Below, piece by piece: positions 60,782 through 64,000 of a stretch of DNA of 64,000 bases. Below the pieces are notes generated by a model. It did no database searches and was not told the origin of the DNA. It saw nothing but the letters and a program-made list of their open reading frames with translations. The DNA is from a virus (Duplodnaviria; Caudoviricetes), in IMG/VR virus record IMGVR_UViG_2818991472_000001, positions 64,001 through 128,000 of that record. One strand, 5' to 3'. The stretch's first letter is position 1; the number at the start of each line of letters is the position of its first letter. Both the position numbers and the translations under genes were made by a program.

Positions 60782-63700
60782 CTAGGTGTCAACGCTGTTC
60801 CTCGGAGCCGCTCCGAATGGAATCTTTGTCCACACCCTGCCTGTGGAAACAATTATGTCTGATGCCGTCCAGGAGACTTCCGGGAGTTTGGGCATGAATC
60901 GGAAGTGGTCGCCGACGTACGCGAGCGTCATATGCGGTGACCAGCCGTGTTCGCTCGGGGTTCGATAGCCGTGGCCGTTGAGGAATTTCTCCAGATCGGA
61001 GTGGAGGTGAGTTCCTCCGGGGATATCAGCCGAGCCCCAGAGAACATTCTGGCCGGGCTTGGTGAATGTCCCCACGCCTCCGATGCGGACGGTTACCGGG
61101 CGGTGTCGGCTGGCCCAGTTCCCGATCAGCTGCGGCAAGTCGGCGAGCTGCTGGCGGGTGTAGTGACCCGTCTTGCCGAGGTAGGCGAGGGTGACGTGGA
61201 GCTGGGCTGCTGGTTCTCCGCCGGGCAGGGCCAGCTGCTCGGCGATCTCCGGCGGCGGGACCAAGGCCACCATCATGCCGTCCTCGACTTCGGCGGCGGC
61301 CTGGCGGGCGATGCGGTCGGCCTCCTCGGGGGTGGCCTGCCGGAAGAACAGGGTGGCGGTCTTCGGCCTGAGCGAGGTGAGGTCGACGGTCTCGCTGGGG
61401 CCGTACTCGTCGTGGGTCATCACGCCGTCGTAGCCGTCGGCGGCGATGGCTTCGGACAGGGCGCGGCCGGACTTGCCGTCGTAGCGCGCGGACAGCTGGT
61501 GCTTCCAGTTCGACGGGTCGCGGTAGTCGCCGCCGAAGTGCATCCGCAGCGGCCGGTGGAAGGTGATCTGGCCGCCTTCGTAGCGCGGATCGTCGGCCAG
61601 GTGGGAGGGCAGCGCGCCCTGGGTGATGTATCGGCCGTGGGGTTCGAGGTCCTGGGCGAACTGGCTGCCGTGGTGCCCGGCGCCCTCGGTGTTGCGGAAG
61701 TAATCGAAGGTGACGGGGCGATCGTCGCCGGTGTCCTCGGTGTAGGGCTGGCGCGCGGCGGTGTGGTGCCCGGTGGTGAAGTCGTGATGGGTGAAGTCGG
61801 TGCGGAAGTCGCGGTTGTCGTCGGCCAGGTGCAGGGTCCAGGAGATCCCGGTGCGGTCGCTGGCCCGCTCGCGGCTGTGCCAGACGATCTGCGTGGCCGG
61901 GTGCGGCACAGCGGGGAGGTCCTCGGCGGCTTCGTGAGCGGCCCCGTGGGCGTAGTCGGGGTCGTCCTCCCATTCATGGGCGGCGGGAGCGACCTGCTTG
62001 AGCCGTTCGGCGCGTTCGGCCACCGGTTGGGCCGGATCGTGGACGAAGGCGTGGTCCTCGGGAGTGAGGTGGACGGCGGTCCCTGCGTACTGCTCGGCCC
62101 CGAGGTCGTTGGGGTCGTCACCGGGGTGGTGGATCTCGGGCTGGTGGATCTCGGGGCCGTGGTAGGCCCACTCGTTGATGTCGTTGCCGTCTGTGTGCAC
62201 GTGCTTGGCCGGGACGGTGGCCTTCAGCACCGGCCAGTCCGGGCCGGTGCCGTCCATGGCGTGGTTGCGCGCGTACTCGCCGGAGGTGGAGACCCAGTCG
62301 CCGGGGCTGATCCGGTCGACGCCGTGGGGCGCGGCCCGGTAGATCGTCACCGGCTCGTCCGGACGGCCGTGGGCGCGGTGGAGGGTGTGGAGGGACTCCT
62401 CGTGGGGCTCGCCGTAGCTGCCGTCGGCGACGTTCTCCTCGAAGCCGGGGTGGAAACCGGAAGCTCCGTTGGTGGGGTCGTGCAGGGGCGCGCTGTCCGG
62501 GCCTGGCGCTCGGTGCTGCATACGGTAGTCGTCGTCCACAGTCCCAGCTTGCCGTACTGGGAGGACAGCGGCGGCGGCGCGGGTGGGCGCGGCCTCGGCG
62601 GTCTGGTCCTTCTTCCAGTCGGTCAGGTCCTGCAGAGGGTGGCCCGGCGCGGCGTCCAGCGCCTTCCAGACGACATTGCGTTCGTCGTACAGGCCCGTTC
62701 CGTCGGGGCCGAAGGCGTCGTGGCGGTCTTGGTGCAGCTGGTCGTACAGGGCGGCGCCTGCGGCGGCCTGGTCGTCCTCGGGGAGGTGCTCGATCTGCTG
62801 GATCTGGTCGCGGAGGTCGTCGAGGCGGTCCCAGTCCTCTTCAGGGAGGTGGTGGGCGTCGAAGTCGTCGGGAACCTGCACGGGTTCGACGGCCCAGGTG
62901 TCCGTGGTGAGGTCGTAGGCGGCGTACGGCTTCAGGGTGCGGATGTCGAAGCTGTCGGGGTTGACGTAGAAGGTCGACTCCCACGGGCCGGTGGCGTGTC
63001 CGTCCGACTGCAGGCTCCGGTCGTCGTCGTCCAGGCCAGCACGCAGCTCTTCGTTGAGACGCTGGTCGATCTCCTGGTCCGTCAGGTGCGAGAGCGGTGG
63101 GGCGCTGCGGCGGGCCTCGTCGTAGTTGACGCCGATGAGGGTGTCGAGGTCGCCGTTGCCGTACCAGTGGCTGGCTTCGGAGCCGGTGAGGTAGACGCGG
63201 GCCCACCGGGGCCAGTCGGAGCCGTAGCGGGGCGTCCAGAAGTCGTCGAGGAGGTCGAGGAGTTGCTGGCGGATCTCTGGTCGCAGGTGGGTGCCGTCGA
63301 AGAGCCTGGGGTCGAGGCCGGATTTGCCTGGGCCGAAGAAGTGGCCGGTGGGCAGCCAGTCGTGGTGGTGCTGGTAGGGCTGGGTGTTGTCGGGGACGAT
63401 GGTGTTCTGGAAGGTGAGGCGGCGGATGGCCTGGTCATAGTCGTGCAGGCCGACGTAGCCGATGTGGATGCCGCCGTCGTCGGTGGGGCGGTGGACGACG
63501 CGGTGGCCTCGGCTGGCCTTGGTGCTGTTCCAACCCTTGAGGGGCTGGGAGAGGGCGTGGGTCTGCAGCCCGTCGTCGCCTCGGCGCAGGGCTTCGACGG
63601 TGTCGGCGATGCGGCGCTGGTCCTGGCGGTCGAGCTTGGCGAGGTCCTTATGGGCGCCGGGGTGGAAGGTGACCGGGCGGAGTTCGGCTACAGGCCCAGG

Positions 63701-64000
63701 TCCTGCTGCACCTTCTCCCAGGGGATCGGGGTCTCCCCCGAGTTGTCCCGTTCCAGGATCAGCCGCTCCAGCTCCGGGTGCAGACGTGTCGTGTCGTGGC
63801 TTGCCTCGGCCTGCAGTTCGTGACTGGTCATCATGGTCCCCCTTGGCAGCGGTGGTTGGTTCATCAGCATAGGTGCTGTCGCCTGGGGTAGTGCGGAAGA
63901 AGTCGGCGGCGGAGGCCATGGTCCTGCCCCGGGTGACGGTCTTGTCCCGGGTGTAGCCCTTCCACCATGCCTTCCCGGCGTCGGAGCGGTCGCCGTGCTC
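60782..64000 (-). CDS. polyvalent protein (5'-truncated): RelE-like, nucleotidyltransferase, two ART-like modules, 2H phosphoesterase
   Basis: frame is open past 63919 to the window edge (EHGDRSDAGKAWW...); VTFHPGAHKDL..LD...HRVV; LTGS...GDLD; IYRA...GDWV; GYDGV; HVTL and HMTL. Confidence 0.85.
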   Translation of the reverse strand, partial: EHGDRSDAGKAWWKGYTRDKTVTRGRTMASAADFFRTTPGDSTYADEPTTAAKGDHDDQSRTAGRGKPRHDTSAPGAGAADPGTGQLGGDPDPLGEGAAGPGPVAELRPVTFHPGAHKDLAKLDRQDQRRIADTVEALRRGDDGLQTHALSQPLKGWNSTKASRGHRVVHRPTDDGGIHIGYVGLHDYDQAIRRLTFQNTIVPDNTQPYQHHHDWLPTGHFFGPGKSGLDPRLFDGTHLRPEIRQQLLDLLDDFWTPRYGSDWPRWARVYLTGSEASHWYGNGDLDTLIGVNYDEARRSAPPLSHLTDQEIDQRLNEELRAGLDDDDRSLQSDGHATGPWESTFYVNPDSFDIRTLKPYAAYDLTTDTWAVEPVQVPDDFDAHHLPEEDWDRLDDLRDQIQQIEHLPEDDQAAAGAALYDQLHQDRHDAFGPDGTGLYDERNVVWKALDAAPGHPLQDLTDWKKDQTAEAAPTRAAAAVLPVRQAGTVDDDYRMQHRAPGPDSAPLHDPTNGASGFHPGFEENVADGSYGEPHEESLHTLHRAHGRPDEPVTIYRAAPHGVDRISPGDWVSTSGEYARNHAMDGTGPDWPVLKATVPAKHVHTDGNDINEWAYHGPEIHQPEIHHPGDDPNDLGAEQYAGTAVHLTPEDHAFVHDPAQPVAERAERLKQVAPAAHEWEDDPDYAHGAAHEAAEDLPAVPHPATQIVWHSRERASDRTGISWTLHLADDNRDFRTDFTHHDFTTGHHTAARQPYTEDTGDDRPVTFDYFRNTEGAGHHGSQFAQDLEPHGRYITQGALPSHLADDPRYEGGQITFHRPLRMHFGGDYRDPSNWKHQLSARYDGKSGRALSEAIAADGYDGVMTHDEYGPSETVDLTSLRPKTATLFFRQATPEEADRIARQAAAEVEDGMMVALVPPPEIAEQLALPGGEPAAQLHVTLAYLGKTGHYTRQQLADLPQLIGNWASRHRPVTVRIGGVGTFTKPGQNVLWGSADIPGGTHLHSDLEKFLNGHGYRTPSEHGWSPHMTLAYVGDHFRFMPKLPEVSWTASDIIVSTGRVWTKIPFGAAPRNSVDT
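63688..63834 (-). CDS. antitoxin-like 48-aa protein overprinted inside the polyvalent gene
   Basis: AAGGGGG RBS; GC3-rich codons in this frame; C-terminal IPWEKVQQDLGL* typical of antitoxins preceding RelE/ParE. Confidence 0.6.
   Translation of the reverse strand: MMTSHELQAEASHDTTRLHPELERLILERDNSGETPIPWEKVQQDLGL

Follow-up and report, generated by a model that had tools for sequence, protein, structure and literature searches.

How does a cell survive while it makes a polyvalent phage effector that carries a toxin domain? To our knowledge, the survival of cells making such effectors has not been addressed before. The question is raised by a locus in the IMG/VR virus record IMGVR_UViG_2818991472_000001 (Duplodnaviria; Caudoviricetes), of which we analysed positions 64,001 to 128,000, a stretch of 64,000 nucleotides that we call the window and number from its first letter. 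On the minus strand at the end of the window, one long frame encodes a polyprotein of 1172 aa with a RelE/YoeB-like toxin domain, and about 145 bases ahead of this domain are read in two frames, as the linker that leads into the toxin domain and as a small, separately started peptide. We propose, with a probability of roughly 0.7, that this peptide, started from its own Shine-Dalgarno (SD) sequence and ATG, silences the toxin domain of the read-through polyprotein and protects the producer, and that the nesting keeps the pair together.

A small frame nested in the toxin linker

The nested open reading frame (ORF) lies in the +1 frame of the polyvalent gene at 63688-63834 (minus strand), from the ATG at 63834 to a TAG at 63690-63688, and encodes 48 aa, or 47 from the second ATG (63831). 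Its peptide ends in IPWEKVQQDLGL before the stop, and the conserved C-terminal half reads HPELERLILERDNSGETPIPWEKVQQDLGL, again up to the stop. An SD-like AAGGGGGA at 63837-63844 (minus strand) is encoded by Lys-Gly-Asp codons of the long frame; SD and ATG together are spelled by long-frame K-G-D-H-D in the window and by the long-frame motif YFGGGH (TTC GGA GGT GGx CAT G) in many relatives. With the other +1-frame ATGs inside the same long ORFs as controls, GGAGG was found 4-13 nt upstream of 10 of 15 small-ORF starts and of 4 of 127 control ATGs (binomial P ~2.5e-12), and an SD match of at least 4 bases at 14 of 15 starts and 22 of 127 controls (binomial P ~2.8e-10). The stop is also held in place, 17 nt before the Val of VTFHP at the start of the toxin domain in the window and at -17 to +1 nt in most relatives. 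The exception (+31) is locus L011 from Streptomyces sp. NPDC056670, where a 15-nt in-frame deletion (L011 780-840) has taken out the small-ORF stop and spacer; because its stop was removed, the nested ORF extends 10 codons into the toxin-coding region, and the long frame is intact. AlphaFold2 (AF2) predicted helices at residues 20-32 and 39-45 of the peptide (predicted local distance difference test, pLDDT, 81-87), both within the conserved half.

The toxin domain that follows (63413-63673, minus strand; VTFHPGAHKDL...HDYDQAIRRLT; residues 204-297 of the 1172-aa frame) was assigned to the RelE/ParE superfamily, YoeB/RelK-like, by its fold. A profile of 35 domains matched YoeB (E 6e-5) and RelK/Rv3358 (E 1.7e-4) in PDB, and RelE more weakly. 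Pfam matches among these 35 members were ParE_toxin in 23 (best E 4.2e-5), YoeB_toxin in 8 and HigB-like in 8; the window's own domain scores 14.8 bits against ParE_toxin, below the 23-bit cut-off. When AF2 was run on an alignment of motif, linker and domain, the first 58 residues were disordered and the domain was modelled with pLDDT above 94. Foldseek with this model retrieved YoeB, RelK, YafQ and RelE (6l8e_E, 3oei_C, 9lew_B and 2a6r_C) and also ParE2 (5cw7_B), the first four toxins with E 7.6e-6 to 1e-3, template modelling (TM) scores by target of 0.72-0.80 and root-mean-square deviations of 1.8-2.5 A. The modelled domain has the RelE/BECR-type fold, with an N-terminal strand, two helices and an antiparallel sheet.

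YoeB uses Glu46, Arg65, His83 and Tyr84 as catalytic residues. Most of the 35 aligned sequences keep H7, T41, H42, R61, H64, H80, Y82 and R88; in the hidden Markov model (HMM) alignment to YoeB, a conserved His (QTH) stands at the Glu of KPE and a conserved Arg (HRV) at HRL, and a conserved C-terminal H-x-Y resembles the His-Tyr of YoeB, a pairing made by judgement as it lies beyond the end of the alignment. From these residues, the domain is most likely an active ribosome-dependent mRNA nuclease. Four of the relatives (P0054, P0057, P0061 and P0067) carry two RelE-like domains in tandem, the second directly after the first, with neither the AGRGKPR motif described below nor a linker long enough for a nested ORF.

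The domain occurs in only two others among 400 genomes of the same family, and genome and soil-metagenome scans together with look-ups of representative proteins brought further loci from independent assemblies. As the first-pass annotation had proposed to verify, homologues do keep both frames open: 14 other distinct loci (L008/L010, L009, L011, L014, L015, L018, L019, L020, L022-L026 and L028) have the same cassette, with the long frame open, a +1 ORF of 42-57 aa and, in most cases, no start codon where the toxin domain begins. The nested layout is also seen in L036, in L037 and in L032, a short form that encodes about 185-200 aa and ends with the toxin domain. The Streptomyces sp. cg35 plasmid pRLB1-9.1 (G169) has the domain in a 1150-aa frame after a different module, and its nested +1 ORF encodes 48 aa (MDRPST...HLAWEPIKEELGLQ) and stops at the domain start. 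An exhaustive search of representative proteins gave 96 clusters with the domain, which was re-detected in 95; these 95 representatives have a median length of 1021 aa, 71 of them reach at least 500 aa, and the domain sits anywhere from the N-terminus to residue ~1475. The cassette is N-terminal in L014, L015 and L018, where the open long frame reaches 124-131 codons further upstream than the called start.

A closed long frame with a normal toxin start, the layout of an ordinary inserted toxin-antitoxin (TA) operon that the first-pass annotation had named as its alternative, was seen in none of the loci with readable DNA, and this candidate was rejected. P0017, an 87-aa protein with a 40-aa gene overlapping by 4 nt, known from its gene record only, may be an ordinary two-gene operon. 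Gene calls in L014, L015-L017, L018 and L036 cut the polyprotein at a GTG within or just after the nested ORF, and the called 'hypothetical' gene of 50-54 aa overlaps by 4-34 nt; the long frame is really open 124-233 codons higher, with a GNAT domain there in L036.

Composition separates the two frames. GC content at third codon positions (GC3) in sliding windows runs at 0.87-1.0 in the long frame down to ~63890, falls to 0.27-0.53 over ~63890-63700 and is ~0.9 again from 63690, while the small frame climbs to 0.87-1.0 over ~63890-63690. Across the last 29 codons of the small ORF, GC3 is 0.97 in the small frame and 0.34 in the long frame of the window, and 0.86-1.00 versus 0.28-0.41 in 12 of 12 loci; in the window's RelE-like domain the long frame has 0.94. 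All sequence statements of the first-pass annotation, on the frames, coordinates, ribosome-binding site, GC3 contrast and missing toxin start, hold on re-reading.

The two frames are constrained in different parts of the overlap. An AT-hook-like motif of the long frame, AGRGKPR (63794-63814, minus strand), overlaps codons 7-14 of the small ORF. As AGRGKPR[RH] it is invariant or nearly so in 31 aligned proteins, across the N-terminal half of the small ORF, with the variant RGRP in several of them, and it lies 34-49 aa ahead of the domain in 39 of 69 representative domains. We found no description of a GRGKPR motif in the literature. Its third positions use all four bases, and since these are the second positions of the small frame, the peptide opposite the motif varies freely (ELQAEASH, EPQDEDGH, AQQARASR, ETQDVESL and others). 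Pairwise differences here are synonymous only in the long frame in 79% of cases, against 32% of possible changes (observed/expected 2.47), and for those synonymous only in the small frame the ratio is 0.35.

Downstream of the motif, the long frame encodes a linker rich in G, A, P and D (63692-63793, minus strand) that is predicted to be disordered (AF2 pLDDT 46-55), and in the small frame the same bases encode the conserved C-terminal half of the peptide; the overlap stretch reads QSRTAGRGKPRHDTSAPGAGAADPGTGQLGGDPDPLGEGAAGPGPVAELRP in the long frame, followed by VTFHPGAHKDL. The small-frame peptide is conserved here as [HS]PE[LV]..h.L.R.......PVxWExVxxxLGL followed by the stop, a helix-loop-helix. 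In the final 14 codons, substitutions that are silent in the small frame alone are favoured (1.10-1.23 versus 0.66-0.69), and a control within the RelE-like domain gave a bias of similar size with the sign reversed (1.33-1.41 versus 0.69-0.79). The long frame is stop-free in 14 of 14 loci, whereas synonymous resampling of each small ORF left it open in only 37-72% of cases; the product of 6e-5 is naive, as the loci are not fully independent. On these sequence comparisons the linker is truly dual-coding, with both frames under purifying selection and the constraints arranged end to end, a long-frame motif and then small-frame helices. They likewise support the view that the small ORF, overprinted on the linker, is a genuine and conserved coding unit with an initiation site of its own, from which we infer its translation.

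A candidate antidote and the alternatives

Under the proposed mechanism, the long frame would be translated straight through GNAT, AGRGKPR, a disordered linker of about 35 aa, the YoeB/RelE-type mRNA nuclease, further modules and a 2H phosphoesterase, while the SD and ATG in Gly/Asp/His codons of that frame would start independent +1 translation of the 47-48-aa peptide. The C-terminal helix-loop-helix of the peptide (PEL..L.R...PVxWExVxxxLGL) would bind the toxin domain translated from the next part of the same mRNA and block its action. This silencing would protect the cell that produces the polyprotein, and the nesting would ensure the joint inheritance of toxin and antidote through domain shuffling. 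Like translation of the peptide, we infer toxin binding, RNase activity, and packaging and injection of the polyprotein; the last two, drawn by analogy with polyvalent proteins (PMC5512222), are speculative.

Several observations weigh against this proposal. The window's own SD, AAGGGGGA, stands 3 or 6 nt before the two ATGs and is weaker than the GGAGG of most relatives, and a promoter and terminator consensus scan of 63300-64000 showed no sigma-70-like promoter ahead of the small ORF. The substitution signal in the small frame is modest and near neutral over the first helix of the peptide; support for this frame therefore comes from GC3, the 14 codons at the C-terminal end, the SD and where the stop falls. 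The peptide gave no meaningful match to Pfam, NCBIfam or PDB profiles; the nearest language-model neighbours, RelB3_C, Unstab_antitox, DUF6290 and PaaA2, have scores of 0.77-0.81, below the level of evidence, and serve as leads only. The first-pass annotation had called W/L-E-x-V-x-x-x-LGL tails an established mark of antitoxins upstream of RelE/ParE toxins, a statement that could not be verified for a peptide family with no sequence match in Pfam or PDB. Finally, two metagenome contigs (L027 and L030) have related RelE-like domains with no recognisable nested ORF or AGRGKPR and with most of the catalytic-type positions covered by the alignments retained; their antidote, if there is one, must be encoded elsewhere.

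A homologue search with the single 48-aa peptide returned no candidates, and a query with the alignment gave 19 called relatives, all 'hypothetical' and without Pfam. Because automatic gene prediction either absorbs the small gene or truncates the polyprotein at a false start, the peptide family has stayed unnamed, and TA surveys based on neighbouring genes would probably miss the nested peptide.

The lack of homology to any known antitoxin family leaves room for a translated small ORF that is not an antitoxin and merely shares the linker DNA, acting as a chaperone or an adaptor for packaging of the polyprotein, as a regulator or as an independent effector. AGRGKPR also shows that the region has functions beyond immunity. 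Such a role is unlikely, given that the ORF invariably stops where a RelE/YoeB-type domain begins and accompanies this domain from one context to another. The nearest named language-model clusters are, moreover, all antitoxins, which is weak evidence, and in its size and two-helix C-terminus the peptide is similar to the segments with which small antitoxins (for instance PaaA2, or RelB and YefM at their C-termini) wrap their toxins.

Could the toxin instead start separately, at an internal GTG or GTGA over the Trp codon or stop of the small ORF, as in an ordinary two-gene TA operon? In 9 of 11 loci the Trp codon is overlapped by a long-frame GTG, three loci have a GTGA overlap at the Val of VTFHP, and gene callers do start proteins there, such that 30 of the 99 domain instances in the representatives begin at most 25 aa from the called start. 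Yet in the window the codons at these two sites are CTG and GTA, the latter formed where the G of the small ORF's closing CTG codon meets the TA of its stop, and the long frame has no ATG, GTG or TTG between the Trp codon and VTFHP. The domain is read as part of the polyprotein, as the first-pass annotation had held when it saw no start for it. The upstream module also has no stop, AGRGKPR is under long-frame selection upstream of those starts, and L014, L015, L018 and L036 are open above the called start, by the 124-233 codons given above, with real domains or N-terminal motifs there. We consider a separate toxin start very unlikely; as a general rule, an internal GTG start was rejected, being absent in the window and lying downstream of a selected motif.

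It is highly improbable that a +1 programmed frameshift yields a truncated GNAT-peptide fusion in place of a free peptide. Rare A-ending codons can favour +1 shifts and the long frame is rich in them here (CGA, ACT, GCA and CCA), but the conserved SD and ATG are needed for independent initiation and not for a frameshift, the upstream partner differs in every locus, and no shared slippery site was noticed, although no search was aimed at one.

An accidental small ORF, either a free open frame in a high-GC linker rich in G, A and P or the product of an assembly frameshift fusing three genes, is close to negligible, for although open alternative frames of 50 codons are common in DNA of 70% GC and openness alone is weak evidence by the resampling, the ORF, SD, ATG, conserved peptide and stop position recur in the 14 other loci, the small-frame GC3 holds in 12 of 12 loci and the SD enrichment has P ~1e-10 to 1e-12. 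A single indel cannot account for both the missing stop and the missing start, and the relatives are not copies of one misassembly, with RelE domains 51-70% identical to that of the window; the assembly frameshift was rejected on the conservation of the layout across independent assemblies.

Beyond the proposed silencing of the toxin in the producer, the cassette might be a portable, shuffle-proof toxin-immunity unit that doubles as a timer. The polyprotein would be packaged and injected free of the labile peptide, the nuclease would briefly shut down host translation, and the peptide, remade from the incoming DNA through the internal start, would then switch the toxin off; more widely, immunity genes tucked into other frames of the linkers would be a common feature of polyvalent phage effectors, and a whole class of them would be absent from annotation. 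Taken together, this extension is doubtful.

If a nested, separately initiated antidote is confirmed, it would answer how the producer survives this toxin domain and would explain how the host survives the shuffling of toxin modules between proteins.

The cassette in its polyvalent gene and replicon

The polyvalent (multi-effector) gene occupies 60782-64000 of the window on the minus strand and continues to about 64297/64303 (1172 aa, P0003). Its frame is open from 64339, in window numbering, to the stop at 60782-60784, with a stop-to-stop GC3 of 0.87 and no stop between the GNAT module and 60782. The likely start is an ATG at 64297 or a GTG at 64303, beyond the window edge and directly after the stop of the upstream gene. 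The protein begins with a GNAT acetyltransferase, followed by the cassette stretch, several modules without a Pfam name and a C-terminal 2H phosphoesterase; a PHROG 'ParB C-terminal' segment was also matched. The C-terminal part of the GNAT module lies at 63925-64000 (minus strand), the rest being outside the window, and residues 45-94 of the full protein score 29.5 bits with Pfam Acetyltransf_1, whose cut-off is 20.7.

A paralogous arrangement in G169 delimits the cassette. In its protein P0005, a GNAT module 58% identical to the window's is joined to a counterpart of the next module (52% identity; 62576-63400 of the window, minus strand, matching P0005 residues 259-549) without the cassette, and window residues ~134-297, which comprise the boundary motif, the SD and ATG, AGRGKPR, the linker with the nested ORF and the toxin, sit exactly between those modules. 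The insert starts directly after the module-boundary motif MASAADFFR (63893-63919, minus strand, long frame). The next module has no Pfam match; it was labelled Pol-beta nucleotidyltransferase-like earlier. In the place of the cassette, P0005 has a Cys-rich, zinc-ribbon-like segment (CPCC...CYHC; residues ~215-258, L008 6144-7793), and by this comparison of sequences the junction between GNAT and next module is one that takes different inserts. The cassette itself follows three other kinds of module in G169 (in a gene neighbouring that of P0005), L009 and L011.

These contexts do not support the history proposed in the first-pass annotation, in which a whole TA operon was captured in-frame. 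The nested layout is present in every readable member, including the N-terminal cassettes and the short form L032, and AGRGKPR is invariant in the long frame within the overlap, from which it follows that the linker is more than what an operon taken up in-frame would leave behind in the wrong frame. It seems instead that the nested cassette itself is the ancestral unit and the one that moves. With the putative antidote gene inside the toxin module's own DNA, domain shuffling would move both together, in keeping with the varied positions of the cassette among polyvalent proteins.

The boundary motif is part of a wider pattern, [ST]A.[FL]F[RQ], which recurs where most modules begin as well as at the N-terminus of the polyvalent proteins: MTTAAEFFR, MASAADFFR and KTATLFFRQ in the window protein (N-terminus ~64270-64297, 63893-63919 and 61331-61351), and ATDFFRQ, TAFFERT, TAFFQLQ and ATAFFRQ in relatives (L008 7790-11242; L009 4360-7491). 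A role as a processing site or as a linker signal is possible. The C-terminal 2H phosphoesterase (LigT-like; 60908-61237, minus strand) was identified with Pfam 2_5_RNA_ligase2 (E 3.3e-13) and LigT_PEase (E 5.9e-07). A 2H phosphoesterase repeatedly accompanies the RelE-like domain, in the same protein or the next gene (window 60908-61237; P0006 in L013/L014; L015 4224-4904), and may act on the cyclic-phosphate ends left by the nuclease.

The gene upstream of the polyvalent gene encodes 700 aa and matches the terminase large subunit (phrog_2, E 6.9e-11), and further genes of the same replicon match a phage DNA polymerase and a UvsX-like recombinase. The replicon is a 155-kb contig of 69.6% GC, whereas the other contigs of this 10-Mb genome have 72-74% GC, and its nearest relatives are deposited as Streptomyces plasmids of ~151-154 kb. 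From the phage genes and these plasmid relatives, the replicon is therefore a phage or phage-plasmid. A tblastn search of cultured phage genomes gave no match, and one of plasmids gave a single partial match located downstream of the RelE-like domain. The consensus scan of 63300-64000 showed no terminator.

Comparison with known systems

Polyvalent proteins have been described as large multi-domain effectors with GNAT, BECR-fold RNase and 2H modules, encoded beside packaging genes and prone to domain shuffling (PMC5512222). The present protein resembles them in its GNAT, RNase and 2H modules and its packaging-gene neighbour: several unrelated effector domains stand in one polypeptide, and the gene adjoins that of the terminase large subunit. 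In the parts of that source available to us, PBECR RNase domains are described and there is no mention of an immunity or antitoxin gene overprinted in a polyvalent gene (PMC5512222); among PDB entries, our domain is closest to YoeB/RelK-type toxins. Multidomain RelE/ParE toxins are known (PMC11980606), and our literature searches turned up no account of a polyvalent toxin gene overprinted with an antitoxin-like one.

With type II TA operons (YefM-YoeB, RelJK of M. tuberculosis, DinJ-YafQ and RelBE) the cassette shares the toxin fold, the profile match and the order of antitoxin-like gene and toxin on one transcript, with a small upstream gene that ends where the toxin begins. Unlike in those operons, the toxin is a module of a 1172-aa polyprotein with no start of its own, and the antitoxin-like gene, instead of standing next to the toxin gene, lies entirely within it in another frame. 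AGRGKPR and a disordered linker precede the toxin domain here. The 48-aa peptide also differs in having no recognisable DNA-binding domain and no match to Phd/YefM, RelB or DinJ: none was found with Pfam, NCBIfam or PDB, and AF2 shows only short helices.

In this last respect it is closer to PaaA2-ParE2 of E. coli O157. PaaA2 is a small two-helix antitoxin without a DNA-binding domain, encoded as a separate gene in a three-gene operon. Both systems pair a short helical peptide that has no DNA-binding fold with a toxin of the RelE/ParE fold; ParE2 was among the Foldseek matches of our domain, and PaaA2 is a weak language-model neighbour of the peptide (0.77). The pairs differ in sequence, with no detectable homology, and the likeness is one of design only.

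The closest parallel for the gene arrangement is lambda Rz/Rz1, in which Rz1, one of the two spanins, lies wholly inside Rz in the +1 frame. Here too, a small gene with its own SD and start is wholly nested in the +1 frame of a larger gene, and both products are functional and act together, as we propose for the cassette. The function is unrelated, since our nested product would inhibit a domain of the protein that encloses it. The cassette also differs in that the constraints of its two frames are spatially separated, with the long-frame motif first and the small-frame helices after it, which makes it a clean natural example of dual coding in which the constraints on each frame can be told apart.

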